Below, piece after piece: positions 9,474-57,565 of a DNA stretch of 64,000 nucleotides; the stretch's first letter is position 1; each line of letters starts with the position of its first letter. Below the pieces are notes generated by a model. It worked only from the letters and a program-made list of their open reading frames with translations, did no database searches and was not told where the DNA came from. Origin of the DNA: Alphaproteobacteria bacterium. GTDB taxonomy: Bacteria > Pseudomonadota > Alphaproteobacteria > CAAHEQ01 > UBA3637. The stretch spans positions 90,155 through 154,154 of the forward strand of contig JAFPYS010000019.1 in assembly GCA_017412085.1 (NCBI GenBank), given 5' to 3'. The translations under genes and the position numbers were made by a program.

Positions 9474-9522
9474 GCTATTTTATCATGATTTCTATCCAAT
9501 TGCAAGTGCAAATGCAAAAAAT

Positions 9523-10677: not shown

Positions 10678-10692
10678 TATCTTTACTCCAAA

Positions 10693-12855
10693 TTAACGAC
10701 AAATCTTTTTTAGTACAGGAATTCCTAAAAAATAGTACCGAATTTTGGTGTGTGATGAATTTGTTTTTATCTTTAAGATAGGAATTCCCAAAACTTTTAT
10801 TTTTGCTTTGTTTTGCTTTCTCTTATAACTGAACAATGGAATCAATCCAAACAGATAGCTTTTCATTTTATTCATCTCCTTCTTTGTTGTTAATAATGTT
10901 TGATGATTTAGATGGTGCTCCAATAATGATGTAAAATATTGTGCAATCCATTCTTGTTTTTCAAGTTTTGCTCCCAACTGAATTGCTTTGTTTAAAGGCA
11001 TTTTTAAGAATGAATAATGAACTAAATTCTGAGCATCCAACGCTGTTAACTGGTGGTATTGACCGTAATTTTGAAAGAGTGCTGTTATCACATCTGCTTT
11101 GACTGCAGCTGTATTCGACGATATCCCTCCCAGTCTATAACAAATAATAAATGGCTCAATCATTGTAATTCGTTTAGCGGCCTGTAACATCTTATACATA
11201 AAGGCTGTGTCAGAAGATACCTTATAATCTAAATCATAAAGTCCTAATTCTTTCATCACATCAGTTTTAATTAAAAATGTTTGATGACAAGCATGCTGAC
11301 CGAAGATCAATGAACGAGTTTGATAACAACTCCACAAACTTTTCACATCCATTGTTTTCTCATCAATAGATTTTGCACTTGCACAACACGCATCTGCATC
11401 TTGTTCTTCAGCCTTTTTCACCAACCATTCTAATCCCCGATCATCACAATAAAAATCATCTGAGTTCAAAACAACCACATATTTCCCCTTGGCCTTTAAA
11501 ATGCCTTTATTAATGGCGTCATACAGCCCCCTATCTGGTTCAGAATAATACGTAATCCACCCCTTTTCTTTATATTCTTTTAAGACATCTAATGTGCCAT
11601 CTTTTGAACCACCATCTATCACAATATGTTCAATATTCTTATACGTTTGATTATGAGCGCTAGTAATACTTTGAATAAAGGTTTTTTCGCGATTTTGTTT
11701 AATTAAATTAAATGTGGGTGTAATAATTGTAACGAGTGGTTTCTGATTTTTACGTTTTTCAACCTCTTCCATTTTATTTAAAATAACATCAACTGTTTTT
11801 TCCCAAGAAAACAGTTTGGAACGTTTCAGACCATTCTGGGCCATTTCATCACGATATTTTTTATCAAAATAATATTTTTCATAGGCTTTTACGTGTTGTT
11901 CGTCACTATCCCAATCGATCATTTGTCCCGCATCACCAACAACTTCCGGTAAACTAGTGTTATTAGATGTAATGACAGGACAACCACAGGCCATAGCCTC
12001 CAAGGGAGGCATACCAAATCCTTCATATTGCGAGGTATAAACAAACCATTCAGCATTGCTGTATAGGACTTCCAAATCTTCATCGTCCACATAACCAGCC
12101 CGAATAATTTTATCTTTATATTTCGAAAAATTTGGAATTTGTTCAGCCCATTTTTCAGCATCTTGCATTACATCTTTACCTGCGATAACATAGACCATAT
12201 TATCAATTTTATTTTGGTCAATAAACTCAAGAAATGTTTTAATACACCGCAGCAAATTTTTTCTGGGATCTAAAGAAGAACAAGAAAAAATAAATTTTTT
12301 ATTCAATGGAATATGATATTTATCTAATATCTTTTTTAATAAGTTTTTATCTTTATTCGGTTTATATGAAAAATTTGCTGCATTTGGAGCAACTATCATA
12401 TTTTTTTCATCGATCTGTGGCCAATACTTTAAAAAATCACGCTTTGTATAACGAGAAACAACAAAATAAAAATCATCCTCTCTGAACGAATTGACTAATT
12501 CACCAAACCAACTATTTGCTCTTCCAAAATAACGGGGCAATAAAAATGGGATGCAATCATGTAAAATAGTGTACCGAGAAATGTGAGGATACTGACGAAT
12601 AAAATCGGGTATTTTATAACTCGGTGATAAAAAAACATCTATTTTTGAAAAATCTCTCCCTTTATAAAAAATGTGATCTTCAGGAAAAGATTTGGTAAGC
12701 ATAGAAAGATCTTTTAGATGAGCTTGTTCTTCAAGATATAGATACAAATTAACGTTCCTTTTTCGAAATTCATTAAATATATTTTGTAAAACGAAAAAAA
12801 TTCCGGAACGACTTCCTAACTTTCCCAACAAACGGACATCCAAGCAAATATTCAT
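10693..12855 (-). CDS. bifunctional glycosyltransferase with N-terminal GT4 (group 1) and C-terminal GT2 domains
   Basis: GT4 motif [33 protein letters not shown], then GT2 motif VTIITPTFN...[11 protein letters not shown]. The C-terminal tail has three LGIPI-type repeats. Its ATG overlaps the stop of the upstream gene (ATGA). Confidence 0.8.
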
Positions 12856-15128
12856 TTTTTATTCCTTTTCCCTAAATTATTAATTAAATATTTTTCCAAT
12901 CGTTCACAAAAACTGGATTTATAATAGAAGAATAAATTTTGCTGTTCCTTCTCCTTAGCAGATAATTGAAAATGATTCTTTGCGTAATAATCTAGAGTTT
13001 TTATGAGGTGTTCTTTATTTTTAATAATATTGGGTAATAAATTCTCTTTGCCTAAATATGGATCAACGACATCCAAAACATGTCCATATTTTTGACAATC
13101 TTCTGCATCGTTAAGCGAATAAAAAAGAACAGGCTTTTCTTGGAAAAAGAATTCAAAACACATTGATGAATAATCCGTTATTAACAAAGATGCTATTTGT
13201 TTTATTTTGAAAATATCATCTTCACCAACTAAATCAATATTCATTTTCTGTAAAACGGGAGACAAAAGATCTGCAACAGAATGATGAAGGGCTATTTTAA
13301 TTTTGATATTATGAACATTCTTCTTAATACAATCCAAAATATCACATATATTCCTTACATATTGACTATCTTTAAGATTTTGAATTTGGGAAAGATAACG
13401 TCTTGTTGTAAAGAAAATAAGAATAAACTTTTCTGATTGCTCCAGTGCAGAATTATGAATACCATCCCAACGCATCAAACCATTTTTGATAATATCTTGA
13501 GTTTTAAAATTCCCTCGTTTAATAAATAATTGTTTTTCCATATCATTAGAAACCAAAACTTTATCAAAGATGTTTTTACCATAAACGTTGGGCATAATGA
13601 AATCCGGTTTAAAAAAAGTAACACCATGTTGCATAAAAATAGAGGTCATATGAGATGTATTTTTAACAATATTATGAAACCCAAAAGGAATAGCTGTAAT
13701 AGCTTGGAAACTATCAAAAACATATCTTAATCTAGGTACTAAAAACAAAAAACACAATTTTAAACGCCATGTTGGAGTAGTCCCAGAATTCCAAAAGATA
13801 ACATGTTTACCATATTTTCGAGCTAATTCTTGACGATATGGTGACTGCGAGTTCAATATGTAATAAGGAACTAATTTCCATTTTTTTTGATCATATAGAT
13901 ATTTAAAAAAAGTAAAATTATCTTGAATGTTGGCATTTGCTTCAAAAATGTTATCCATCAGCAATACAACATTGCGTTTAAACGGAATGCGATTAACGTT
14001 TTTCAAAATCTTTTCAAAAAAGTTAGATTTTTTTCTATTGGGATTATTTAATTTTATTTTTAACAATAAAAGACATCCTAATAAATATATTTTTATTTTA
14101 CCTGGCTTTTCCCTGATTTTAATAATTGGCAAAAAATTAAATAATTTATAGGTGGTTACATCGGAAATTTTTTCAAAATGGGATTGAATACTTTTTTGAT
14201 TAACAATTGCTTTTTCCTCTATCCAATCCAGTATTTTGGTTCTTTCTTTGGACCATTTGGCATAACCAGTTTGGATATATTTTATTGCATTTTCCTGAAT
14301 TTTTCTGATATTCCCCAATTGAATTGGTTGTGGATTTTGGGGATCATACAAATAGCCATTTACACCGTTTGTAATATATTCATTCATTGTTGGATTATTT
14401 GGAGCAATCACACATCTCCCCATAGCCATTGCTTCCAAAAAGCTCATTCCAATCCCTTCGTATAATCTGGGGGCAATATAAATTGCTGATTTCTGTTGTA
14501 TTTGCAACATTTCTTCTTTTGTATTAAACCATTCAGAATAAGTTATCTTCCATTTTGAATCTGGTGAGGGATCCATAAAAGTATGAGCTGGGTCTAAAGC
14601 CTTATGAATATGTAAGCGAGTGATTGAATTTCCCATCAAAAGCTTCTCAATAAGAAGTACGTTTATTGGGGTAATTCTTTGCCAGAAAAAAACAGATTTT
14701 GTATCCCCCATATTACCTATTTTTTGAGAGGGTTCTGGAAAATATTGGATATAGTGTGAAGAAAAACCGAGTTTACTCAATTCTTCATGCAATGTACGGC
14801 TGAAATTAATAATTTGAGTAAAACGATATTCGTACCAAATAGGATTATTCCGACTGGGAATACCATCATACATCGGGAAAAAAACACTTTTTTTAAAGGA
14901 AATAAGTTTTTTTAGTTTCTCTAAAGAAGGCATGATTTGCAACAAGACCAATATATCATATTGTTTTCCTTTCAATGGAGCAAAATGGGAATTTATCTCA
15001 TCCTTATATGGATCAAATGAAAACACATCTACAGTATATTTTTTTTCTAATACAGATAATAAAAATAAATTTGATTTGGTTTTATTGTGATAGGCGTGGC
15101 CAATATACAGTAGCTTTTTCTTTTTCAT
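12852..15128 (-). CDS. GT4 glycosyltransferase fused to a TagF-like CDP-glycerol glycerophosphotransferase domain
   Basis: GT4 motif YEGIGMSFLEAMAMGRCVIAPNNPTMNEYITNG in the N-terminal third. The C-terminal region carries the TagB/TagF hallmark ITDYSSMCFEFFFQEKPVLFY. An internal linker has LPIIKIREK...IYLLGCLLLLKIK motifs. Confidence 0.7.
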   Translation of the reverse strand: MKKKKLLYIGHAYHNKTKSNLFLLSVLEKKYTVDVFSFDPYKDEINSHFAPLKGKQYDILVLLQIMPSLEKLKKLISFKKSVFFPMYDGIPSRNNPIWYEYRFTQIINFSRTLHEELSKLGFSSHYIQYFPEPSQKIGNMGDTKSVFFWQRITPINVLLIEKLLMGNSITRLHIHKALDPAHTFMDPSPDSKWKITYSEWFNTKEEMLQIQQKSAIYIAPRLYEGIGMSFLEAMAMGRCVIAPNNPTMNEYITNGVNGYLYDPQNPQPIQLGNIRKIQENAIKYIQTGYAKWSKERTKILDWIEEKAIVNQKSIQSHFEKISDVTTYKLFNFLPIIKIREKPGKIKIYLLGCLLLLKIKLNNPNRKKSNFFEKILKNVNRIPFKRNVVLLMDNIFEANANIQDNFTFFKYLYDQKKWKLVPYYILNSQSPYRQELARKYGKHVIFWNSGTTPTWRLKLCFLFLVPRLRYVFDSFQAITAIPFGFHNIVKNTSHMTSIFMQHGVTFFKPDFIMPNVYGKNIFDKVLVSNDMEKQLFIKRGNFKTQDIIKNGLMRWDGIHNSALEQSEKFILIFFTTRRYLSQIQNLKDSQYVRNICDILDCIKKNVHNIKIKIALHHSVADLLSPVLQKMNIDLVGEDDIFKIKQIASLLITDYSSMCFEFFFQEKPVLFYSLNDAEDCQKYGHVLDVVDPYLGKENLLPNIIKNKEHLIKTLDYYAKNHFQLSAKEKEQQNLFFYYKSSFCERLEKYLINNLGKRNKK

Positions 15129-15138
15129 TTTTACTCTT

Positions 15139-16317
15139 TTACTTTAAATCGAAAATTTGTTGTGTGGTTTTATCCCAGGTGAATTGTTGCGCGCGCTGGA
15201 GACCTTTTAGCGATAATTCCTGGCGTTTTGAAGGATTACTATATAAATCCCCCATGACATGGGCCATCTTTTTTGCATCTGTTTCTGGCACATATAGTGC
15301 GACATCGCCCCCTACTTCCGGTAAGGAAGAATTGTGGCATGTGATAACAGGCGTACCGCATTGCATCGCCTCTAAGACAGGCAACCCAAAGCCTTCGTAT
15401 AAACTGGGATAAAGAAAAGCAGTTGCTTCAGAATAAAGTGCTGGCATGTCTGAATCAGCAACAAAACCCGTGCAGATAATCTTATTTGCGTATTCAGGAT
15501 AGTTTTGAATTTTTTCTTGTAATTTTTCATAATGACGACCTTTAGGGCCTGCAAAAACCAACGAAATATCCTTTGCTTCTATCTGATTTAAGAATTTTAC
15601 AAATGAATTTAAAATGTGTATAAAATTTTTTCTAGGATTGTGGTCTGAAACCGCCAAAAAATACTTTTGCGTCGGGATATGATATTTTTCTTTAATAGCA
15701 TTTGATTTTGAAGGTTTAAATTTAGAATCAGCTGCTAAATATACCACTTTCGTATTTTTATTGATATAATCGGGTCGAAATTTAAAAAAATCAATCTTTG
15801 TTGCATCAGAAACACAGATAACTTCATCAGCTTTCACTTGTTTAATCCAGGAACGATACTTCTTTACAAAACCAGGAGAACAGGTTTCTGGCATAATCAA
15901 GGGAATTAAATCATGAATAAACATTCTTGTTTTAATCTGGCTTTTATAAATAATTGGAGAAATGGGAGAAAATAAACTAAGGTATTCATCATATTGCCTT
16001 AATTGCTTCATATATTCATGAAAGTATTTTTGAGTCAAAAAATAACAATATGCTTTTTTATAAAGATTATATTTTTGTGTTGTCTTTTTTAGGTACGGCA
16101 TTCTGACAATATTAGGAACCAAATATCCAAGTCCTTTGTCTTCTAAATATTTTACTGGATCGACACCTTTTTTTGTCGTAACAATCGGGTAAACTTCATA
16201 CTCTTTTTGTTTGGAAATACGCTTCAAAACTTCCAAAGAAACACGACAAATCCCCGTCTCTCGCCCCGCACTCATTAATAACTGCTCAATATCATAAAGA
16301 AGCTTGATTTTTTTCAT
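15139..16317 (-). CDS. GT4 (group 1) glycosyltransferase
   Basis: Motif YPSLYEGFGLPVLEAMQCGTPVITCHNSSLPEVGGD. Start set at the ATG at 16317, which overlaps the stop of the cytidylyltransferase gene as ATGA. Confidence 0.8.
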   Translation of the reverse strand: MKKIKLLYDIEQLLMSAGRETGICRVSLEVLKRISKQKEYEVYPIVTTKKGVDPVKYLEDKGLGYLVPNIVRMPYLKKTTQKYNLYKKAYCYFLTQKYFHEYMKQLRQYDEYLSLFSPISPIIYKSQIKTRMFIHDLIPLIMPETCSPGFVKKYRSWIKQVKADEVICVSDATKIDFFKFRPDYINKNTKVVYLAADSKFKPSKSNAIKEKYHIPTQKYFLAVSDHNPRKNFIHILNSFVKFLNQIEAKDISLVFAGPKGRHYEKLQEKIQNYPEYANKIICTGFVADSDMPALYSEATAFLYPSLYEGFGLPVLEAMQCGTPVITCHNSSLPEVGGDVALYVPETDAKKMAHVMGDLYSNPSKRQELSLKGLQRAQQFTWDKTTQQIFDLK

Positions 16318-16748
16318 TGCTGATTCCATTTCTTTAAAATCCAACTAGATGAATTTGCCTTATGAGAACCGCCAATACCAAAGACTTTTTCAACATGACA
16401 TTCTTGACATACATCATCTTCGCGAATGTTCTCTTTTCCTCGATCTCCCCCATTCGCGAATACCAATACATCATGGGGATACATTTGTCGCACTTTACGA
16501 ATTCCATCACTGGCCGAGTTATCTGAATCATCAAAACCTAACGCACAAATAACTCCTTTTAAATTTTCGCAAATTGTTTTTCGTGTATTGAAGTTTTGAA
16601 AAGCTTTTCCCTTCTTACGGATTAACCATTCATCGGAATTAACCAAAACAACTACACCATCACTTGCCTCCGCCGAGGCCTTTATCATTTCAATATGCCC
16701 CTCATGAATGGGATCAAATCCTCCGCTGACAATATAATATTTTGCCAT
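16314..16748 (-). CDS. cytidylyltransferase-fold nucleotidyltransferase (TagD-like or HldE domain II-like)
   Basis: 144 aa with the (H/T)xGH motif SGGFDPIHEGH, and NSDEW...KGK and LVFANGGD segments that align to HldE domain II (FDILHAGH, NSD...KG, LVKGGDY). Confidence 0.7.
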   Translation of the reverse strand: MAKYYIVSGGFDPIHEGHIEMIKASAEASDGVVVLVNSDEWLIRKKGKAFQNFNTRKTICENLKGVICALGFDDSDNSASDGIRKVRQMYPHDVLVFANGGDRGKENIREDDVCQECHVEKVFGIGGSHKANSSSWILKKWNQQ

Positions 16749-16978
16749 TTGTTTTCCCTTTATAGATTCAAATCAAAACACATTATGTTGTGTTTTCTTG
16801 GAGAAGATTAAAACATACATTTTATACTAAGTCAAGAAAAAAATATAATATGAATATAATTTTATGTATTTTAATATGAAATTTCAAAATTATTAAAAAA
16901 TTTCAATGTATTAAAAATATTACCATTCAATTATTCAAAAGAGACTAGGTATAAAAAAGCATACAGTAGTATGTAAAA
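16749..16978 (-). promoter_or_regulatory. AT-rich (~85%) intergenic region, likely the promoter/leader of the glycosyltransferase operon
   Basis: 230 bp with no ORF and multiple TATAAT-like hexamers, immediately upstream of the first gene of a run of five overlapping or tightly spaced genes. Confidence 0.35.
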
Positions 16979-17230
16979 TTATTGACGTAATGCTTGGTCA
17001 ATTGCCTTAGATAATTGATCCGCGCAAGATGTGCCCTTCCCCGCGCAATCGTTGCCACGCAGAACATCTGCCACTTGTTTAGCATCTTTGCCTTCGATTA
17101 GTTTGCCAATCGCCAGTAAATTACCAGGACATCCACCTAAAAAACGAACATTATGTAACTTTCCATCTTCTATATCAAAATGGATTTCTTTAGAACAAAC
17201 CAATTGTGTACGATATACATAATGTGTCAT
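16979..17230 (-). CDS. TSCPD-domain small four-Cys protein
   Basis: 83 aa with GGCPGNL and GKGTSCADQL motifs that match the TSCPD signature. Lies 8 nt downstream of the helicase gene. Confidence 0.55.
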   Translation of the reverse strand: MTHYVYRTQLVCSKEIHFDIEDGKLHNVRFLGGCPGNLLAIGKLIEGKDAKQVADVLRGNDCAGKGTSCADQLSKAIDQALRQ

Positions 17231-17238
17231 ATTGCCTC

Positions 17239-19974
17239 CTATACAAATTTATCCAGCACACTTGACCAACGACTTACCTTGTCGGCATAGGTTGTTTGAA
17301 TGCTGGAATAAGCTTTTGCCCTTGATTTTAACATTAACACCCGACCTTCTACGTTGCGTGTGTAAATCACTTTACAATAACCAATATGTTTTTGCCAGTT
17401 ATTTTTAAAAATATTCGCCATTTCTTTGTTTTCAGATAAAATCTCTGGTAAAGCATGATAATCTTTTTGTTGCCACCATTTAACATTTGTATTTTGGCGC
17501 ACCAACAAGTACCTAGGATTATCAATCGGATCCAAGAATTGTTTCATGGCATTAATAAAGACATGATTATCTTTTTGATTTAGGCCGATCGCACTCACTG
17601 TATAATGAACACCTGGAATCTTTTTAACCTTTAGCAACGCTGCTTTTGGGGACGTGTTAATGGCATCTATCTCATATAAACTTTCTAACATCACAAGACC
17701 GATTTGTTCCAACATTTTTTCAGGACGTCCCGCCCTTAGAACTTTCCAAGTCGGAATCAACATAGCCACTATAAATACAGCGATAATTAATCCATATACC
17801 CACAAAGGCGCCATATTATCGTAAGCGATCTTACAGGCTTGATAAGCAAGGAATCCATAAGCGATAAGCATCGTGAAATAAGCATCCACAAAAGGTAATG
17901 TCTTTACTTTATTATTTGTGTCCAGTTCTTGTTTAACAGACCCGATGCCGACTTTTGATTCCTTTACAATTCCTTTTTCCCAAGCTGTTTTTGTTTCCTC
18001 GCGTGTATAAGCAAGTGCTTTTTCATTCAATTCGTCCAATTTCTTTTCTTTTAATTTAGTTGATTTTGTTCCCCATAGACAACGATCCATCCCATTCGTA
18101 ATATCATAAGGCGGCAATAAGCTTGGCGCTTCATAACCAGCAAAGCGACGACTTAAAGATTCAAAATCGCCACCGATATCGCCCTCTTCTCCCTTCCAAT
18201 TATCCACAATATTAAACACTTTGATGTTTGCCAGGTGCCAAATATGCGAAATCTTATCCGGATGATTTTTATCGACACGGATGGCGCGTCCCCGCATTTG
18301 GTTTGAAAGCATATAAGATGCCACGGCACTAGACAACACCAACGAGTTAATACTTGGAGCATCCCAACCTTCGCCCAACAAAGCCTGTGTCCCAACCATA
18401 ATCGTCAAATGACCACCATTAAACAAGTCTGTAATTAAATCCACAATCTTGGATTTTGCCTTTTCCTTTGGCTTAACCGTCACATAATCTGGATAATATT
18501 TAAAGGATGAAAAAGTTACATCGGACTTGTTCAAATTGGCTTTTTCCATTAAATCGACCAAAGGTTTTTCCGCATTTTTTGGAAGTAAGATAATTTGTCC
18601 GGTTAAAATACCAATACTGGCTTTTGGCAAATGAAGTGCCTCCAAGTGTCTGAAAATCGGTACCACACCCAAAGCATCTACCTTAGTCTCAAAGGCATCA
18701 TGCTTAATCAAATCGGCCAAAATTACCATCCGCAAGTCAGCTCCTAACAGGCTATGCTCACGTTTTACAATTTCCTCAATGGCGTCTAATTTCCCGAGAC
18801 TGCGAGCCAATGTTTGTGCAACCGAAGCATTATTTTGAATTTGCACAGATTTGTTTTCAATCAAGTTTGCCTTGGCCGCTTTTTGATGCAGAGAGTTAAT
18901 TTGATCGGCCAATTCGGGATACTTTTCCCCGTGTTTAAAAATTAAACCATTTAACACACGTTCGATCTCTGGTAATGTCAAGCGAGGCAACTCTTCGCCA
19001 GTTGCCTGAAAAATTTCCAAAAATGGCTTGGCAATTTCTTTCTTTTGAGTTTTTAAATAGCTTGACAAAGCAAGATAAAATTCTGGATCATCAAACAATT
19101 CCACCAAAAAAGGATCTGGATTATTCCAAAAAGAAAGCTGTTGAACAGCCGCGCCAAATTCTTCGTTTTTTAAAAAATCATCTACAAACGCTTTTGCCGC
19201 TTGTTCATGCTGAGCCAAAGCTTGTTTTTCTTCTTCGCGCAAATGAGCAAAGTAAATCAAGTCTTGATGTGGACATAAATCCCCAGCCTGCACCAACTCA
19301 GGGATGCTGATTTCGGCATCAACGGGACCACATAAAGCTTCATACCGATCCCATTCGTGCCGATCCACATCATAGGGAGGCGTTGCCGTTAAAGCCACAG
19401 TTTTTTTAAGGCTCATGTGCTCCATCAAATATTCCAAAGCCTTCCACCATTCTTTGCGCAGGTGATGGGCTTCATCCAAACACAGCACTTCGATCTTGGC
19501 TTTCTTTAAAATCTCGACCAACTTTAACGCTTTTTCTTCGTTTAAGCGTGACAATTTTTGAGCGCGCTTTTCCGCCTGCTCTTCCAAGGCGGACACTTCC
19601 TCGTCCGTTAAATCTTCTTTGACATCCTTTTCCACTTGACCGCTTAAGCCCGCCAACAATCCTTGATAGGTTGAAAGGGTGATTGTTTTGGGCGCCAAGA
19701 TATTTGTGGAAATCATGTCATCCGCAATCTTTTTGTTGGTCAAAAAGGCCTGTTTTAAACGGGATGCCCATTGATGTTTAATCGTGATTGTCGGCGTTAA
19801 AATCAAACAAGGTTTTGCAATACGGCGCAAAACCTCCAATCCCAAGATGGTTTTGCCGGCGCCAGGGGCCGCCACAATGTGTAATTTTTCGTCTTCAATG
19901 TGATTGTCCAAATCGTCCAAAATCGCCTGTTGATAGGATCGCCATTTGCCTTGAAATTGTAAATCTTTAAACAT
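17239..19974 (-). CDS. SF2 DEAD/DEAH-box helicase-family protein with a C-terminal membrane-associated extension
   Basis: 911 aa. Motif I AAPGAGKT, motif II LDEAHH, motif III TATP, motif VI QMRGRAIR. The C-terminal 300 aa contain two predicted TM helices (FTMLIAYGFLAYQACKIAY and LWVYGLIIAVFIVAMLIPTW). Confidence 0.8.
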   Translation of the reverse strand: MFKDLQFQGKWRSYQQAILDDLDNHIEDEKLHIVAAPGAGKTILGLEVLRRIAKPCLILTPTITIKHQWASRLKQAFLTNKKIADDMISTNILAPKTITLSTYQGLLAGLSGQVEKDVKEDLTDEEVSALEEQAEKRAQKLSRLNEEKALKLVEILKKAKIEVLCLDEAHHLRKEWWKALEYLMEHMSLKKTVALTATPPYDVDRHEWDRYEALCGPVDAEISIPELVQAGDLCPHQDLIYFAHLREEEKQALAQHEQAAKAFVDDFLKNEEFGAAVQQLSFWNNPDPFLVELFDDPEFYLALSSYLKTQKKEIAKPFLEIFQATGEELPRLTLPEIERVLNGLIFKHGEKYPELADQINSLHQKAAKANLIENKSVQIQNNASVAQTLARSLGKLDAIEEIVKREHSLLGADLRMVILADLIKHDAFETKVDALGVVPIFRHLEALHLPKASIGILTGQIILLPKNAEKPLVDLMEKANLNKSDVTFSSFKYYPDYVTVKPKEKAKSKIVDLITDLFNGGHLTIMVGTQALLGEGWDAPSINSLVLSSAVASYMLSNQMRGRAIRVDKNHPDKISHIWHLANIKVFNIVDNWKGEEGDIGGDFESLSRRFAGYEAPSLLPPYDITNGMDRCLWGTKSTKLKEKKLDELNEKALAYTREETKTAWEKGIVKESKVGIGSVKQELDTNNKVKTLPFVDAYFTMLIAYGFLAYQACKIAYDNMAPLWVYGLIIAVFIVAMLIPTWKVLRAGRPEKMLEQIGLVMLESLYEIDAINTSPKAALLKVKKIPGVHYTVSAIGLNQKDNHVFINAMKQFLDPIDNPRYLLVRQNTNVKWWQQKDYHALPEILSENKEMANIFKNNWQKHIGYCKVIYTRNVEGRVLMLKSRAKAYSSIQTTYADKVSRWSSVLDKFV

Positions 19975-19991
19975 CTCTCCCCCTGATATAT

Positions 19992-20984
19992 TTATCGTTC
20001 TTTTGGTGCGTATTTAGCCAAAGTCACCGCCACAGGACTTTCAAATGGTTTGGCCAGTTGTTTTTGTTGTTCCAACTTTTCCATTTCTTTTTTGTGCTTT
20101 TGTAATCTCTCAAAGGTCATCAAACCAGACAGGGCGGCACAAAACCCCAAAAAACCACGCTCCATTATAGGCAGATTTGGTGCAAATAGGGCAGTTGGTA
20201 TAGCCATAGCAGCACCAGATGCCCGTACAGCTAGACCGGCCACATACGATTTTCTGTCGGCGTCTTTCAACTTTTCATGTTCAGCATTAAACCATTGTGC
20301 CACACCAGCCGCGGTTTCTTGAATGCCATGTTTTTTCACGCTATCCATCAAGGTCAATGGATCCGCCATGGCCAGACCAACCAGTGCTGGCATTTTATCA
20401 AAACGCTCTGACGGCAATTGTTCATATAGCTCTGCAAATACCCTGCGATATTTCATGTATTGCTCGTCTGTTAAAAACGACACCTTTTCTTCCCGATTTT
20501 TCTTAATCATTTTGGCAAAGAAATTGTATTCTTTTTTGCTGTCTAAACCATTATTCAAAGAATCAAAGAAATCATCAAATTTTAATGCATACTTCCATCT
20601 ATGCAAAGAATAAAGTGTTTCACAAAAATCGGCATATTTATCTAAATTAACATGACCTTCTGTATCAACTTCACCATCTCTTGCATCAAACATTTTCAAG
20701 ATTTTTTCAGGGCAAACATATTTTACTCCACGACGTAATATTGCTATTCCCAATTCCGGAACAGGAACACCACACACTTTTCCAAAACCATGATCTGGCC
20801 GAACCAACAAAAATCGTTCGCGCAATTCTTTTCTGGCCGCCTTAGCACCCTCGGTCAAATCCCACGCAGAAAATTCGTGTTCCTCCACCTTTAGAAAGGC
20901 ATTAATTTCTTCCTCCCGCAGCTTGATCTGATGGCGGATCCAATCTTTTTCATCATTGAAATTTGTGTGTTTGTGCGATTCCAT
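19992..20984 (-). CDS. hypothetical protein (paralog of the next gene) with a C-terminal bilobed hydrophobic segment
   Basis: 330 aa. About 45% identical over the C-terminal 200 aa to the 313-aa neighbour (FDKMPxALGLAMAD, SVKKxG, GVAxWFxAE). Hydrophobic hairpin AGLAVRASGAAMAIPTALFAPNLPIMERGFLGFCAALSGLM. Confidence 0.65.
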   Translation of the reverse strand: MESHKHTNFNDEKDWIRHQIKLREEEINAFLKVEEHEFSAWDLTEGAKAARKELRERFLLVRPDHGFGKVCGVPVPELGIAILRRGVKYVCPEKILKMFDARDGEVDTEGHVNLDKYADFCETLYSLHRWKYALKFDDFFDSLNNGLDSKKEYNFFAKMIKKNREEKVSFLTDEQYMKYRRVFAELYEQLPSERFDKMPALVGLAMADPLTLMDSVKKHGIQETAAGVAQWFNAEHEKLKDADRKSYVAGLAVRASGAAMAIPTALFAPNLPIMERGFLGFCAALSGLMTFERLQKHKKEMEKLEQQKQLAKPFESPVAVTLAKYAPKER

Positions 20985-20996
20985 TTCAGCACCTTC

Positions 20997-21938
20997 TTAT
21001 CTTGATGGGCTGTATTTATCAAAAATCGCGGCCACCTTGCCCAGGTTGCTTTCACCCTTCTCTTGTTTGTTTTCATCGTGTTTTTTCAGCTGATAAAGGG
21101 CCAACCAACCAGATACCGCCGCCACAGCGCCCAAAAGACCACGACCAACCATCGGCATATTCGGTGTAAAGACGGCCGTTGGCAACGCCACGGAAGCGCC
21201 CGTGATGCCCGCAACAAGGCCCACTTTTCTGCGGACTTCTTTTTTGTGTTTCGCACGTTCAGCATCAAACCATTCTGCAACACCTCTTGCTGTTTTTTCA
21301 GGACCATATTTTTTCACGCTGTTGATCAAAATGGCCGAATCTGCCATAGCCAAACCCAATGCCTGAGGCATTTTATCAAAGCGTGGTCTTCCATCAAACA
21401 AATCGGAGGGCAATTGATCATAAACGTCCACAAACACCTTGCGATAGTTTTCGCGTTCATCTTCGGATAAAAAAGATATTTTTTCGTTTTGATTTTTACC
21501 AATCAATTTAAGAAAGTATGCCATCTCAAAAGACTTCAAACCACCCCAAAAATTCCCAGTGTCTATATACGCTTTCCAAAATTCGTATTCGTGTAGCGCG
21601 GCAGTATAAATAAAATATTTTTTATACAAACGTGGATTGACCTGAATTCCATATCCTGGTTCGTCATGGAACATCTTCATCATTACTTTGGGGCTAATGT
21701 GATTCAACCCTTGACACATCCTGGCCAACCCTAATTCATCAGAACCGGTATGTAACATTGGATGCACCCCAATACCATTTTTGTCCCAAGTGTCAATCAA
21801 CATGTCACGTAAATCTTTCTTGTTGGAGTCGGCCTCCATAGATGCATCCCATGCGGAAAGATCCTCCGCTTCATCATCCTCTTCCGGACGAAATGTTTTT
21901 TCTAACGCTTTTACTGTTCTGAGAGCGTCTTCGGCCAT
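20997..21938 (-). CDS. hypothetical protein (tandem paralog) with a C-terminal bilobed hydrophobic segment
   Basis: 313 aa. Shares blocks with the 330-aa neighbour. Hydrophobic hairpin VGLVAGITGASVALPTAVFTPNMPMVGRGLLGAVAAVSGWLALY. Confidence 0.65.
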   Translation of the reverse strand: MAEDALRTVKALEKTFRPEEDDEAEDLSAWDASMEADSNKKDLRDMLIDTWDKNGIGVHPMLHTGSDELGLARMCQGLNHISPKVMMKMFHDEPGYGIQVNPRLYKKYFIYTAALHEYEFWKAYIDTGNFWGGLKSFEMAYFLKLIGKNQNEKISFLSEDERENYRKVFVDVYDQLPSDLFDGRPRFDKMPQALGLAMADSAILINSVKKYGPEKTARGVAEWFDAERAKHKKEVRRKVGLVAGITGASVALPTAVFTPNMPMVGRGLLGAVAAVSGWLALYQLKKHDENKQEKGESNLGKVAAIFDKYSPSR

Positions 21939-30730: not shown

Positions 30731-30821
30731 TCTATTATATAATATAAAAAAACGAATTGCAATAAAAAAATACTTGCGAAATAAAAATCAGTATGTTATA
30801 AAGGAAGAAAAGTGAGGGAAG

Positions 30822-32222
30822 ATGCAACCAAAACAACACCCAGGTCATCCTGAACCGGTTTCAGGATCTTATCATAATAAAGAAATTCTGAAACGCGCTG
30901 TGCTTGTTCAGAATGACAGATGCACAGATTCTGGCCGCAGCATGGTGGAAATGCTGGGCATGTTGGCAATTATGGGATTGTTGGGCATTGCAGCGATTTA
31001 TGGCATCCAAATGGCCATGAACAAGACGAAAGCAAATCAAATTATAAAAGATGGACGTTTAGCACATACTTCGTTAATTACAGATCCTATGGCATCGGAG
31101 TCTCCATGGCAAGACGCTGGCTTTACCCCTCTTTCCGATAAAACAATTCAAAAATGTATAAATGCCAACCAGCAACCTCTTGTGAAAGTGCAAGATGTCC
31201 AACCTTCTGTCTGTAAAGAGTTATTACAATACACGGGAATGGGAGAAGTTAAATTTTATAATGCTGTTGCGGGAAACACCTGTTCGGCTAGCGCAAACGA
31301 ACTAACCACCTGTGGTGATCAAAACCAAGATATTGTCATTTTATTTGACGCCAATGGGATGTCTGACGAATCGGGAGACGATACTGGATGCCGAACCGCT
31401 GCCGACTGCGATAACGGGTGGTGTAATAACGGCGAATGTGTGCCCTGCCCGGATTATCAACAGCCCAACGAACAAGGCGATGGCTGTACCGCAAATTGTA
31501 AGCAAGAAACACAAGATCGTTGTGGGATTGGCGAAGGAGACGACGCCATTGATTGGTGTTGTGACAAAGAATTACAGTGTGGTTCAGAACCCGGCACTTG
31601 TTCCGATGGAACATGCAGTTGGGAATTTCATCAGTTCGCGCCCAAAGCGACATGTCAATGGACTTTTGAACAAAAAGCCCCTCATAGCGATTGCACGGTT
31701 ACCTTGACCTATAATGCCGGCGGCACAGAGGTCACGGATGTCACCACAACCGGTTGTGCAGATTCTGGTGAATATTGTTATGTGGCTTATACAGATGCTG
31801 ATTGCGATGCCACAAATCATGCGGTTCAAAATGGTTCCACCGGCACATTACATGGTGTGTGCAACGCCATGACAACGGTAAATACAACCTGTGTGCCAGA
31901 ACTTACTTACACATCGTCAGGTTGCGATACCGCCGGACAATATTGTTATTTGTACTACACAGACCAAGGGTGCAGCACCCCCGCCGGTAATAGTGCAACA
32001 ACGCTTTATGGTGTGTGCCAAGGCATGACAACGGTCAATACAACCTGCGTTCCAGAAATCACCATGGAAGAAAAAACTTATTGCCAATCTGGTGAATATT
32101 GTTATCTGAAATGGGCGACAAATACAGCTTGCACCGAGCTTACGAACGGCGCCAGCGATGTCCTGTATGGCACATGCATCGCCCAAAACGCCGCCTCAGG
32201 CAGCTGCCCGTATAATCATTAA
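30822..32222 (+). CDS. type IV pilin-like (prepilin N-terminal cleavage/methylation motif) secreted protein with three Cys-rich tandem repeats
   Basis: G|RSMVEMLGMLAIMGLLGIAAIYG follows the class III signal pattern (Gly-1, Glu+5, hydrophobic helix). The C-terminal half has three ~55-aa repeats ending in MTTVNTTCVPE and containing GEYCY...LYGVC. Confidence 0.65.
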   Translation: MQPKQHPGHPEPVSGSYHNKEILKRAVLVQNDRCTDSGRSMVEMLGMLAIMGLLGIAAIYGIQMAMNKTKANQIIKDGRLAHTSLITDPMASESPWQDAGFTPLSDKTIQKCINANQQPLVKVQDVQPSVCKELLQYTGMGEVKFYNAVAGNTCSASANELTTCGDQNQDIVILFDANGMSDESGDDTGCRTAADCDNGWCNNGECVPCPDYQQPNEQGDGCTANCKQETQDRCGIGEGDDAIDWCCDKELQCGSEPGTCSDGTCSWEFHQFAPKATCQWTFEQKAPHSDCTVTLTYNAGGTEVTDVTTTGCADSGEYCYVAYTDADCDATNHAVQNGSTGTLHGVCNAMTTVNTTCVPELTYTSSGCDTAGQYCYLYYTDQGCSTPAGNSATTLYGVCQGMTTVNTTCVPEITMEEKTYCQSGEYCYLKWATNTACTELTNGASDVLYGTCIAQNAASGSCPYNH

Positions 32223-32228
32223 GTTAAT

Positions 32229-32657
32229 TTAGTCATGGTTATCAACGCAAATCGCTCTTGCTGTGGCGCTTCGATTTGACCACCAAATACTACAACCAAG
32301 ATCACATCTTCCACCAACTTGAAGTGCCTGAGTGCCATTTTCATTTGCATCCGCCAACCAAATACCCGTAATAGCAGAATAACTGCTGATATTACCACAA
32401 CGAGCTGAATTATTAACAAATGACATACTTCCGCCAGTGCATACGTCTTCATATCTTGCTAAACGCATACCATTGGCGTTACACCATGCAAAAGCGCTCC
32501 ACCAATTCATAAATGAAGCTGAAGATGCAGATGACATACATAAACGTTGTGTTGTATTTACTTTTCCCATATATTCCGTTCCACCGGTACATGTGGCGTG
32601 GGCAAGCGAAGAACAAAGCAAACAAGCCCCCGCAAACAACAATACAGATTTTTTCAT
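32229..32657 (-). CDS. small secreted C-type-lectin-like (CTLD-like) protein, paralog A
   Basis: Signal peptide MKKSVLLFAGACLLCSSLAHA, then ATCTGGTEY, then MNWWSAFAWCNANGMRLA (WxxAxxxCxxxGxxLA of the CTLD) and 6-8 Cys. AGGAGGG RBS. Confidence 0.65.
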   Translation of the reverse strand: MKKSVLLFAGACLLCSSLAHATCTGGTEYMGKVNTTQRLCMSSASSASFMNWWSAFAWCNANGMRLARYEDVCTGGSMSFVNNSARCGNISSYSAITGIWLADANENGTQALQVGGRCDLGCSIWWSNRSATARAICVDNHD

Positions 32658-32702
32658 GAAATCCCTCCTTTTGCGTTGTTTTGACGAAAGAAAAACATGC
32701 AC

Positions 32703-32720
32703 TTTAAACGACCGTTTAAA
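32703..32720. promoter_or_regulatory. 18-bp perfect palindrome TTTAAACGACCGTTTAAA (candidate operator), copy 1
   Basis: Inverted repeat TTTAAACG-AC-CGTTTAAA about 48 nt upstream of the ATG of paralog A. The same element recurs at 33170 and, degenerate, at 33281. Confidence 0.45.
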
Positions 32721-32743
32721 ATGCATGGGGAAAAATGAAAAAA

Positions 32744-33130
32744 TTATTGACTATTTGGAGCGCAAAGAGCTTTTGAGCCTGTCCACACACGATCGGCAGT
32801 TTTGTAGTATGTGTAACTACCGTTTACCTCAATATATGCACGTAACGTTGTTCCAACGGGATCTGCTAAACCTGCAGGATAAGCTGCATTGGCCAATCTG
32901 TGGTAACAATTCAAACTTTCATCGGACTTCATACGACACATTTCCATCCAAGTTGCTAAATGCATACCATTGGCGTTACACCAAGCATGGGCGGACCAGT
33001 AATTCATTGTCTTATTAGATACACAAAATTTTACATTGTTGTTTGTGTACTCAGTTCCGCCTTCACAAGTTGCATGTATTGGGCTTGAAAAGATTAAAAG
33101 CAAGGACATCAGAATAGAAATTTTTTTCAT
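32744..33130 (-). CDS. small secreted C-type-lectin-like protein, paralog B
   Basis: Signal peptide MKKISILMSLLLIFSSPIHA, then TCEGGTEY, then MNYWSAHAWCNANGMHLA. The C-terminal VWTGS...ALCAPNSQ resembles the CTLD WIGL...C end. AGGAG RBS. Confidence 0.65.
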   Translation of the reverse strand: MKKISILMSLLLIFSSPIHATCEGGTEYTNNNVKFCVSNKTMNYWSAHAWCNANGMHLATWMEMCRMKSDESLNCYHRLANAAYPAGLADPVGTTLRAYIEVNGSYTYYKTADRVWTGSKALCAPNSQ

Positions 33131-33169
33131 TTAAAACTCCTTAGATAAGCATTGATTTTAGGCATTTAC

Positions 33170-33187
33170 TTTAAACGACCGTTTAAA
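33170..33187. promoter_or_regulatory. 18-bp palindrome TTTAAACGACCGTTTAAA, copy 2 (upstream of paralog B)
   Basis: An identical 18-mer lies within a 45-nt block (ACTTTAAACGACCGTTTAAAATGCATGGGGAAAAATGAAAAAA) that is duplicated at 32701-32745. Confidence 0.45.
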
Positions 33188-33338
33188 ATGCATGGGGAAA
33201 AATGAAAAAAATAAAAAAACAGATACTTTTTTTATTGACTTACCTGTTTTTTTATTGTATCAAAGTATTAGGCGACAAAAACGGTCGTTTAAAGTGCATG
33301 TTTTTCTTGCGTCAAAACAACGCAAAAGGAGGGATTTC

Positions 33339-33773
33339 ATGAAAAAATTATTTGTCTTAATTGGACTTACTCTTGCGATGTCATCAACTTCCGCCTATGC
33401 AGGCTGTACTGGTGGAACAACGTTTAACACCACCATAAATTCATTAACCCTTTGCAAATCAACCGCTTCTATGAACTGGTGGAGTGCTTTCGCATGGTGT
33501 AAAGCAAACGGCATGCATCTTGCCACTTTTCAAGATGCTTTTGGCGATGCAACTTTAGCCTACAATAGCAATTGTACACTTAGCATAAATAGCAATATGT
33601 ACAACATGTCTGGCATCAATGGATACCCATGGTTGGCCTTGCCCGGAGATGATAATAGCGGAGAAACGGCTTTTGCGGTTTGCGGAGTGTCAACCGGTGG
33701 TTGGCATCGGGTAAACAAATACTCAAGAACTACAGCCAGGCCTGCTCTTTGTGCGCCGAACACAAATAATTAA
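33339..33773 (+). CDS. small secreted C-type-lectin-like protein, paralog C
   Basis: Signal peptide MKKLFVLIGLTLAMSSTSAYA, then GCTGGTTF, then MNWWSAFAWCKANGMHLA. WLALPGDDNSGETAFAVCG...ALCAPN resembles the CTLD WIGL.D...EDCV...C end. Its 5' leader (33281-33338) is about 95% identical to the paralog A leader. Confidence 0.65.
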   Translation: MKKLFVLIGLTLAMSSTSAYAGCTGGTTFNTTINSLTLCKSTASMNWWSAFAWCKANGMHLATFQDAFGDATLAYNSNCTLSINSNMYNMSGINGYPWLALPGDDNSGETAFAVCGVSTGGWHRVNKYSRTTARPALCAPNTNN

Positions 33774-39799: not shown

Positions 39800-40798
39800 A
39801 TGTTAATGACAATTAATTTTTCACTGATCTTATTTTTAATAGTAATTGCCATTTTGTTTGTAATTACTAGCCTGTTTTTGGCCATTAAAATTAACCACAT
39901 GCGCTATAAAATGAGCATATTGTTGGAAGAAAAGGCAAAGGCCATTGAGGAAGCCGATCATTATGCCGCCCTTGCAAAGAATCCTTTGGGCCCTTTGTTT
40001 ACGCAAGATACAGAACCGCTAATTCTTTCTTTTAATGTAAAAGGAAAAATTATCAATGCCAATGATCGATTACTCCATAAATTTGGTTATACAAAAGCAC
40101 AATTAATTGGGAAAAATGCAATTGGCACCATTCTGTTAAAGCCAAATAAAGAAACCGACAGCATGATTTATCGTTTGTTTAAAAACCCAGACTTGTTTAT
40201 TGATGCCGAAACAGAAGCAATAACAAAATCCGGTGAAACACACTGGATTTCATGGACAAACAAGGTTATTTATAACTCAAAAGGCAAACCTATCGCCGCG
40301 GATGCTGTTGGATTTGATATTACAAAAAGAAAGGAAATGGAGGCCGAGTTACAATATTTGTCCTCTATTGATCCTCAAACACATGTCATGAACCGTCCCG
40401 CCTTATTGGAAACTGGTGCTACTGAGTTAAAACGAGCCAAACGCTATGGCCGTGCATTATCCGTTGTTATTTTTAAATTCTTTAATAAAAACGCCCATAG
40501 ATCCTTAACAGATGAAGAATTGCGCGCAGCAGCACAGTTAGCACGCACTGTCGTTCGTTCTGTTGATTATTTAGGCCGTATCGGAGATGTTGAATTTGCA
40601 TTAATCTTACCCGAAACGACTGCCCAAAATGTACCTTTCTTAATTCAGCGTTTATCCCAACACATGGATGAGTACAACAAAAAAACACACAATGACATTG
40701 CACTTACCTATGCTGCTGTTTCCTTTAAAAAGAAATCTGATACTATAGATAGTTTAATCAGTCAAGCGTGGCGCAAAGTAAGCGTTAAAAAGAAATGA
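39800..40798 (+). CDS. membrane-anchored PAS domain protein with a degenerate GGDEF domain (likely non-catalytic c-di-GMP signalling protein)
   Basis: N-terminal TM helix, PAS-like IINANDRLLHKFGYTKAQLIGKNAIG, and C-terminal GGDEF-like fold with RIGDVEF in place of RxGGDEF. Confidence 0.7.
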   Translation: MLMTINFSLILFLIVIAILFVITSLFLAIKINHMRYKMSILLEEKAKAIEEADHYAALAKNPLGPLFTQDTEPLILSFNVKGKIINANDRLLHKFGYTKAQLIGKNAIGTILLKPNKETDSMIYRLFKNPDLFIDAETEAITKSGETHWISWTNKVIYNSKGKPIAADAVGFDITKRKEMEAELQYLSSIDPQTHVMNRPALLETGATELKRAKRYGRALSVVIFKFFNKNAHRSLTDEELRAAAQLARTVVRSVDYLGRIGDVEFALILPETTAQNVPFLIQRLSQHMDEYNKKTHNDIALTYAAVSFKKKSDTIDSLISQAWRKVSVKKK

Positions 40799-57052: not shown

Positions 57053-57565
57053 TTAATATTTTATACCTATACATAAAACATCTGGCACTTCATCCGTACA
57101 ATCCGTCTTGCTTTTCTTGCATTTTCCACCTGAATATTCGTATATACCTACAACTTCACCCTTAGCATAATGCTTTTTCTCCTCTTGCACACGCTTCATT
57201 AAAGCCTTGCACACTGACGCATCCAAAGCCTTTCCACCATTAACATTTCCCACAGGAACAGCAACATAACCAAGCGCCGCCTCACGCTTGACACCGGTAT
57301 TGTTATCGCCCACACCGTAGCCATAAGACGTTATAGCAGAAGCTCCACCAGCCTGTTTATCAAAAACACCATAAGTCAATTTACTAGACTTCTTTTCTGC
57401 AACCAATGCACGTTTACGTACCTCATCCAACAAATTGTTTAATCGCACTTGAGATGTCGCATCTCCAAAAAAGGCCATACCACCAACGGTCAAAAGTCCT
57501 ATGAGCGCCAAAACACCAAGCATTTCCAATAGCGTACGCCCACTATTTTTTTCCATTCGTTGCAT
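57053..57565 (-). CDS. type IV pilin-like protein (prepilin-type N-terminal cleavage/methylation domain)
   Basis: MQRMEKNSG|RTLLEMLGVLALIGLLTVGGMAFF, with Gly-1, Arg+1, Glu+5 and a hydrophobic helix. The C-terminal pair of Cys (C...C) is typical of a pilin disulfide loop. Confidence 0.6.
   Translation of the reverse strand: MQRMEKNSGRTLLEMLGVLALIGLLTVGGMAFFGDATSQVRLNNLLDEVRKRALVAEKKSSKLTYGVFDKQAGGASAITSYGYGVGDNNTGVKREAALGYVAVPVGNVNGGKALDASVCKALMKRVQEEKKHYAKGEVVGIYEYSGGKCKKSKTDCTDEVPDVLCIGIKY

Follow-up and report, generated by a model that had tools for sequence, protein, structure and literature searches.

The class III leader of type IV pilins and related proteins is hydrophilic, ends in a glycine and counts 6-26 residues in classic examples, and long leaders are a recognised trait of the type IVb subclass (PMC4471445). 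Some pilins are modular, a pilin carrier being extended by a functional module for display on the filament, as in Streptococcus sanguinis PilB with its vWA module and PilC with its lectin module, and more than 1,200 modular pilins are found in InterPro (PMC8179133). CofB, which is predicted to sit at the tip, bears beta-repeat and beta-sandwich domains, and the case of modular pilins whose added module has no known signature is predicted to be under-counted (Raynaud et al. 2021, PMC8179133). Here, we describe a gene that probably belongs to this last case. It occupies positions 30822-32222 on the forward strand of a 64,000-nucleotide stretch of contig JAFPYS010000019.1 (hereafter the window, to which all coordinates given without a locus name refer) and it encodes, in our favoured reading, a type IV pilin of modular build that belongs to a divergent and lineage-specific class. 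The 466-residue product combines a pilin module (aa 39-180), a linker and an added module without known domain signature; it is identical to MBQ3696158.1, which is annotated as "hypothetical protein" in an Alphaproteobacteria metagenome-assembled genome (MAG).

The open reading frame (ORF) is complete (30822..32222, +, 466 codons and a stop) and starts with an ATG. A hydrophilic leader (aa 1-38, 30822..30935, +) with a net charge of +1 ends in Gly38 and is followed by the predicted alpha1-N segment (30936..30998, +), i.e. 21 mostly hydrophobic residues composed of R39 (+1), SMV, E43 (+5) and MLGMLAIMGLLGIAAI. The N-terminus consequently reads TDSG38/R39SMVE43MLG, the slash marking the predicted cleavage site, and the hydrophobic segment after Gly38 reads RSMVEMLGMLAIMGLLGIAAI; the Gly-ending hydrophilic leader, the hydrophobic stretch and Glu+5 are those of a class III signal. 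An in-frame TGA at 30813-30815, two codons before the ATG, implies that the motif cannot be internal to a longer N-terminal domain, a possibility that the preliminary description of the locus had raised against its own prepilin reading. The same description counted a leader of about 39 residues and called its length unusual. From ATG 30822 the leader is indeed long, at 38 residues, but an alternative in-frame start, GTG 30900, would shorten it to 12 residues, the median of the family presented below, and the 38-residue leader may thus be an artefact of the start call. A Shine-Dalgarno-like GAGGGA, read by eye, precedes ATG 30822 only and not GTG 30900. Even the longer leader would not be out of place, since the closest fold is that of type IVb subunits, among which long leaders are normal (PMC4471445). 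A TTGCGA-17-TATAAA promoter spotted by eye can be taken only as a suggestion because the scan for promoters and terminators gave a result no better than shuffled sequence. Other export signals were considered and rejected: a Tat signal, since there is a single Arg and no RRxFLK, and a Sec/signal peptidase I signal, since an A-x-A site is absent and the helix runs on to residue 87. The number of Cys in the mature part is even (34), in agreement with a disulfide-bonded extracytoplasmic protein, and the conserved Cys131 and Cys164 look like the D-region pair of pilins.

The homology of this N-terminal part to type IV pilins is carried by profile and fold comparisons. Searched against all sequences of the PDB, a profile of the N-terminal domain found 17 matches, all 17 of them type IV pilins, the best being the fimbrial protein 8tob (E 2.6e-5) and TcpA (E 2.8e-5), with geopilins, PAK pilin, CofA, gonococcal pilin and PpdD among the others. 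In the TcpA alignment, which covers profile positions 14-111, the Cys of the family's "VCKxL" pairs with that of the TcpA "AQCKTL". The Ser+2 of the family is aligned with Thr2 of the pilins, which places Arg at +1 and Gly at -1. Besides, the AlphaFold2 model, computed from a 139-sequence alignment, gives residues 40-178 a predicted local distance difference test (pLDDT) of 85-98 and shows in the pilin module (30936..31361, +) a beta-sheet preceded by an alpha1 helix of 48 residues (aa 40-87), so that the pilin arrangement of an alpha1 of about 50 residues packed on an antiparallel sheet is present in the prediction. Foldseek against the PDB ranked the type IVb filament subunits TcpA and CofA at the top with a probability of 1.0, and TcpB and CofB are also among the fold matches of this module. 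Fold and profile are closest to TcpA, CofA and PilS, and the assignment to the type IVb subclass, whose pilins have leaders of ~15-30 residues and a larger pilin domain, is made mainly on the fold because the leader length is ambiguous (38 or 12 residues, for a family median of 12). A Tad/Flp or TadE-like protein was rejected, as neither the globular domain nor the fold matches are Flp-like, both being of type IVa/IVb character. Taken together, these results identify the N-terminal 180 residues as a type IVb-like pilin module, genuine though divergent, and the prepilin motif announced by the preliminary description (Gly, Glu+5 and a hydrophobic alpha-1) is present and homologous to that of type IV pilins by profile and predicted fold.

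This pilin module is shared by a large family. Nineteen full-length homologs (375-547 aa, with identities down to ~25%) have in common the N-terminal motif, a conserved domain of ~140 residues, a Cys-rich middle and one to four C-terminal repeats. The N-terminal domain profile alone recovers at least 4,519 protein clusters (E<=1e-3), almost all from MAGs of gut Alphaproteobacteria; among the 120 best matches listed, none has a pilin Pfam domain and all entries with a named source are "hypothetical protein [Alphaproteobacteria bacterium]". A scan for GRSM[VT]EML[GA] in one genome per GTDB species gave at least 595 matches, of which 571 were confirmed, and the best 80 come from ~37 assemblies, nearly all of which belong to uncultured Alphaproteobacteria living in the guts of humans, rabbits, pigs and ruminants. 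Two contigs with such genes are binned in MAGs of Lactobacillales (L022) and Acidaminococcaceae (L029), which probably reflects contamination and not a true occurrence outside Alphaproteobacteria.

Conservation within the family is marked around the predicted cleavage site. The +1 residue is Arg in 136 of 137 motif-bearing members, in which G-1, S+2, M+3, V+4, E+5, M+6, L+7 and G+8 are each at least 90% conserved, and Glu+5 (E43) is invariant in 139 sequences. The Arg, which the preliminary description had noted in place of Phe/Met, is therefore there as described but is not peculiar to this gene, being near-invariant across a family of thousands. Conservation sets in sharply at -3/-2 (E-S-G/R-S-M-V-E-M-L-G), and neither the length nor the sequence is conserved before -3, where leaders count 5-82 residues (median 12, mode 8-12). 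Such a sharp boundary behind variable leaders is the pattern expected of a leader that is removed.

Members of the family are numerous per genome and variable in size. At least 15 paralogs were found in one MAG, as counted on the fragments covered, and many loci of 20 kb contain two to five copies, often in small tandem clusters, the genes being located among housekeeping genes at the homolog loci. Mature sizes are bimodal (~113-160 and ~340-500 residues), with one member of ~1,832 residues that bears a GRSMVEMLG N-terminus (locus L018, 4699, +) and shows that the carrier is able to bear very large cargo. At the other end of the range, four tandem pilin-sized copies (113-124 aa) with identical N-termini lie at positions 16369-17799 of locus L038. 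The window itself contains a second, pilin-sized member (57053..57565, -), of 170 aa with the leader and start MQRMEKNSG/RTLLEMLGVLALIG, i.e. an N-terminus MQRMEKNSG/RTLLEMLG, which is encoded directly upstream of mreB-mreC-mreD-pbp2-rodA; its alignment spans the entire pilin module, conserved Cys included, and its Pfam scan gave no match. None of 72,556 plasmids matched the pilin module by tblastn, giving no link to the IncI/R64-type thin pili. A full-text literature search with the motif strings found no paper, and nothing relevant was found on RF32 or CAG-239 in connection with pili.

Behind the pilin module, a linker (aa 180-186) modelled with low confidence leads to the Cys-rich residues 187-466. 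Their first part (aa 187-310, 31380..31751, +, 15 Cys) contains knots of the C-x5-C-x4-C-x4-C-x2-C type and short C.W.F/C.V.L beta units, and is followed by three repeats of five Cys each at aa 311-366 (31752..31919, +), aa 367-419 (31920..32078, +) and aa 420-466 (32079..32219, +). Repeats 1 and 2 are 53% identical and each shares 31-33% identity with repeat 3, which is the copy most conserved among homologs (..YCYLKW..C....G.LYG.C......CP). The three Cys-rich tandem repeats of the preliminary description are therefore real: they are also kept in homologs and remain discernible in the DNA, where the comparison of repeat units that it had called for reveals three copies spaced by 168 and 156 nt and a 55-nt pair of 85% identity. 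In the structural modelling that it proposed, AlphaFold2 yields beta structure for the C-terminal part at a moderate confidence (pLDDT ~35-80, with ~75-80 for aa 190-260 and less beyond) and without fold match. Indeed, residues 187-466 have no match in Pfam, in PDB sequences or among PDB folds. In an exhaustive HMMER search of 1.84 billion representative proteins, 71 had the repeat module at E<=1e-3 and 33 at E<=1e-10. Among the matches whose length suffices to cover an N-terminus, most have the pilin-type one with GR..E, and many of the remaining matches are short or start mid-sequence, one being an apparently spurious repetitive ORF. As judged from these sequence searches, the repeat module is both rare and specific to the lineage, and it goes together with this pilin carrier.

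These properties can be assembled into a mechanism. The hydrophobic alpha1-N would insert the precursor into the inner membrane, its leader remaining on the cytoplasmic side, and an A24-type prepilin peptidase, co-evolved for the E-S-G/R-S-M-V-E site, would cleave after Gly38 to give a mature protein with Arg1 and Glu5. The pilin module would then be incorporated into a type IV filament or a short pseudopilus, where its bulk would probably assign it to the tip or make it a rare subunit, and the disulfide-rich repeat module would be displayed outside the cell as a binding, adhesin-like surface. At the scale of a genome, the many paralogs would put varied C-terminal modules, C-type-lectin-like domains (CTLDs) included, on an invariant GRSMVEMLG carrier. 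The preliminary description had proposed a minor or tip pilin-like adhesin built on a pseudopilin anchor; its minor pilin-like architecture, i.e. a pilin part and a C-terminal module comparable to those of TcpB, CofB and PilB, is borne out, and tip location and adhesion remain the conditional part of the proposal.

Several observations weigh against a processed and assembled pilin. Pfam N_methyl (PF07963/IPR012902) and NCBIfam TIGR02532 do not match the protein even at E<=1, R at +1 and M at +3 lying outside their usual consensus, and to standard tools the motif is thus not the unmistakable one that it had been called. To our knowledge, no characterised pilin has been reported with Arg at +1. 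The fold evidence is itself a prediction, and the C-terminal half is modelled with moderate confidence and has no structural counterpart. At least 15 paralogs per genome are also far above the normal needs of a pilus. More generally, the weak points of the case are that the organisms are uncultured and that everything downstream of homology is inferred.

The search for an assembly machinery points in the same direction. It covered the 64-kb window and ~1.2 Mb of DNA around more than 100 family genes, i.e. 1-2% of each genome. The window is ordinary chromosome (~40% GC, with aspS, sufBCDS, mfd, mreBCD-pbp2-rodA and five tRNAs) and contains no pilus or type II secretion system (T2SS) genes; Pfam scans of ten other unannotated window ORFs returned nothing pilus-related, and 10 kb beyond one window edge held no relevant genes. 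The pilin-like gene is surrounded by aspS, the CTLD-like proteins and an RNA methyltransferase, which is not the compact operon of type IVb systems. Neither an A24 peptidase (GxGDxK regular expression; tblastn with GspO), the presence of which the preliminary description had made the test of its reading, nor a GspF/PilC/HofC-type platform protein or secretin GspD was found in the window or the ~1.2 Mb. In the latter, regular expressions for the A24 motif and the T2SSE Walker A returned PriA and FtsK only, and tblastn with E. coli GspD/E/F/G/O, HofB/C and PpdD revealed one orphan ATPase and nothing else. Canonical GFTLIE-type pilins numbered 0 there versus 123 GRS-type motifs, a count that speaks for the pilin reading of the GRS-type proteins. 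With a coverage of ~1-2% of each genome, little weight can be given to the missing machinery; verified pilins are, besides, often encoded apart from their biogenesis genes (PMC3244431).

The orphan ATPase belongs to the T2SSE family (Pfam T2SSE 2.7e-28) and is encoded at positions 16434-18317 (+) of locus L058, where a family member lies at a distance of 5 kb. In NCBIfam it is matched best by PilT, ComGA, GspE, PilB and DotB, all far below the curated cut-offs, and its orthologs (also in L092-L100), 65-88% identical across many Alphaproteobacteria MAGs, are named "TadA" by PGAP and "PilT" by JGI. In the contexts that we read, these genes are always orphan and usually divergent from rimP-nusA-infB; the five contexts contain no platform protein or peptidase, all neighbours being housekeeping genes. 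The clade thus retains a type IV filament-type motor, and its conservation and its proximity to a family member in L058 speak for the pilin proposal. Its tie to the GRS-type proteins is, however, unproven, and an orphan gene beside housekeeping genes, so far below every subfamily cut-off, counts with the observations that weaken the pilin proposal. The L058 protein has a long N-terminal extension with Pro-rich tandem repeats of ~40 residues. Separately, a second T2SSE ATPase (329 aa) adjoins a very large TrbI/VirB10-domain protein at positions 18820-21380 (-) of locus L095, in a related genome, which indicates that the clade also possesses a type IV secretion system.

An alternative that draws on these negative results is a pilin-derived anchor that is neither cleaved nor assembled: the GRSMVEMLG helix would tether dozens of periplasmic or envelope modules to the inner membrane, the Arg would supply the positive-inside charge and no filament would be made. 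The lack of peptidase, platform protein and secretin in the DNA sampled agrees with it, as do the failure of the standard pilin hidden Markov models and the many paralogs per genome dispersed among housekeeping genes. The charge distribution fits as well, since the E-S-G before the cleavage site is acidic or neutral and R+1 is the sole positive charge nearby. Such an anchor nevertheless leaves unexplained the near-invariant Gly-1, a Glu at +5 within a membrane helix and the sharp boundary at -3. It would not account either for the conservation of an entire, pilin-like globular domain instead of the helix alone, nor for the existence of pilin-sized members without cargo, and the absence of machinery is tempered by the small fraction of each genome sampled. 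We hold this alternative to be unlikely.

A further alternative arises from the neighbours of the gene, which are three small secreted paralogs, 37-40% identical to each other and each with a Sec-type signal peptide. The first (32229..32657, -, 142 aa from MKKSV, with a predicted CTLD fold) is convergent with the pilin-like gene, the second belongs to the same family (32744..33130, -, 128 aa) and the third (33339..33773, +) counts 144 aa from MKKLF, its longest ORF beginning at 33192. They have no meaningful Pfam or NCBIfam match and no PDB sequence match by profile. The AlphaFold2 model of one of them (7-sequence alignment, pLDDT 72.5, predicted template-modelling score 0.70) retrieved by Foldseek CTLD-superfamily folds for all of the top 50 PDB matches, albeit with E-values of only ~1e-2. 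The best match is the C-terminal domain of Bdellovibrio Bd2740 (probability 1.0, template-modelling scores 0.51/0.63), others being mannose-receptor carbohydrate-recognition domain 4, CLEC12A, LYVE-1, snaclecs, natural killer (NK) receptors and link domains. The label of lectin-like that these neighbours had received is therefore reasonable at the level of a predicted fold. The same module, marked by WWSA..C.ALG, makes up the C-terminal end in the pilin-family members P0016-P0019 and in a 374-aa protein of locus L058 (9974-11098), and hhalign aligned the neighbour module with the fused one at a probability of 93.5% (E 2e-7, 33 columns). By sequence comparison, the CTLD module and the pilin carrier are evolutionarily linked. 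The genes are convergent or divergent and hence do not form an operon, and the pairing of pilin and CTLD genes is not conserved at the homolog loci L001 and L002. The suggestion that 30822-33773 constitutes a single adhesion locus can accordingly be entertained as a hypothesis only.

By analogy with CofB-CofJ and TcpB-TcpF, the protein could instead be a subunit of a secretion pseudopilus that, in the manner of T2SS pseudopilins or of the type IVb minor pilins TcpB and CofB, helps to export or hold soluble partners, the neighbouring CTLD-like proteins being candidates. The type IVb-like fold with its TcpB and CofB matches, the position of three secreted CTLD-fold paralogs directly beside the gene and the CTLD that other members carry covalently fused to their pilin module, a hint at a functional partnership, are all compatible with such a role. 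But the neighbours have ordinary Sec signals and lie on other strands or transcription units, the pairing is lost at L001 and L002, and the DNA sampled holds no secretion machinery, which makes this role quite unlikely. Finally, a chance motif in a spurious or mis-called ORF, to which the missing Pfam and NCBIfam matches and a database annotation that is solely "hypothetical" could have led, has a negligible probability, since motif, Cys pattern and repeats are all retained in 19 full-length homologs with identities as low as 25%, the N-terminal domain is found in at least 4,519 clusters and the pilin module is modelled with confidence.

A modular type IV pilin thus remains the reading that we favour, with the reservations given above. 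A few other elements of the window deserve mention on their own account. A membrane-anchored PAS-GGDEF diguanylate cyclase is encoded at 39800-40798 (+); cyclic di-GMP signalling often controls pili and adhesion. A glycosyltransferase-like block with a cytidylyltransferase-like gene (9500-16750) has a GC content of 0.29-0.35, against ~0.40 elsewhere, and may be a horizontally acquired surface-polysaccharide island. A possible defence or mobile module is located at 17239-21938 (-), where the gene of a 911-aa helicase-like protein precedes two ORFs (330 and 313 aa) whose acidic N-termini resemble each other; the one of the two that was scanned had no Pfam match. The odd ORFs noticed at 51.8-52.5 kb were discarded as mere frames overlapping rodA.

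The interest of the family resides in its invariant Arg+1, its size, its restriction to gut Alphaproteobacteria and its invisibility to annotation pipelines. Type IV filaments are usually detected through N_methyl/TIGR02532, which thousands of members from uncultured gut and rumen Alphaproteobacteria escape, and it is for this reason that all of them are annotated as "hypothetical". Should they undergo processing and display, these proteins would define a new variant of the class III signal with an invariant Arg+1, which would bear on the substrate rules of prepilin peptidases and on the roles of the N-terminal residue and Glu5 in assembly. They would also amount to a large set of modular proteins at the cell surface, equipped with Cys-rich repeats and CTLDs and probably devoted to gut attachment, and GRSMVEMLG would offer a simple handle to catalogue surface proteins in a lineage that is poorly known. 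Without processing, the family would instead illustrate clearly the re-use of a pilin domain as a membrane anchor.

Compared with known systems, the family shares with the type IVb major pilins (Vibrio cholerae TcpA, enterotoxigenic Escherichia coli CofA and Salmonella Typhi PilS) a Gly-ending leader, Glu+5, a hydrophobic alpha1-N, a +1 residue other than Phe, a long alpha1 packed on a beta-sheet and a conserved Cys that aligns with a disulfide Cys of TcpA. Characterised type IVb pilins have M, L, V or W at +1. In contrast, the members described here have Arg at this position and an acidic E-S-G before the cleavage site, and they differ further by the lack of a compact pilus operon, by dozens of paralogs per genome and by the absence of any N_methyl/TIGR02532 match; the 466-aa protein has, in addition, 285 extra residues. 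In this respect, it is closer to the minor pilins TcpB and CofB, which count ~420-520 aa and also have an N-terminal pilin domain followed by beta-rich domains. However, its C-terminal modules have no detectable similarity to theirs, contain 30 Cys and repeats of ~47-56 aa, and no pilus operon adjoins the gene.

Paralog expansions with a prepilin N-terminus also occur in other phyla, in the form of the DUF1559/H-X9-DG proteins of Planctomycetes and the PilE-like proteins of Elusimicrobium. As in the present family, tens of scattered genes share a near-identical prepilin-type N-terminus and have diverse C-termini. These proteins keep G/F-T-L-I-E and are detected by TIGR02532, whereas G/R-S-M-V-E-M-L-G precedes a type IVb-like domain here. 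A more distant parallel is the archaeal bindosome, in which functional proteins other than pilins are localised to the surface by means of a class III signal peptide and a machinery of type IV filaments (PMC4471445). The bindosome is archaeal and its proteins have no pilin globular domain, so the likeness is one of analogy only; the match of the orphan ATPase to BasE is weak (E 1e-12). With this parallel in mind, a bolder proposal, which we regard as doubtful, would be that the GRSMVEMLG proteins are a distinct, undescribed type IV filament branch of gut Alphaproteobacteria, in which an invariant Arg+1 replaces the usual N-methylated hydrophobic residue and which uses a co-evolved peptidase and the orphan PilT-like ATPase. 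The carrier would be a display or secretion handle for dozens of cargo modules per genome, and the whole would parallel the bindosome in bacteria and account for a major share of host contact.

To conclude, a close architectural parallel is found in the modular pilins, with which the family shares a pilin carrier fused to varied cargo modules, CTLD included. Unlike catalogued modular pilins, the cargo of the gene presented here has no known domain signature. Besides, modular pilins have been catalogued through IPR012902, which the family fails to match, and thousands of carriers of this kind would therefore have been missed.

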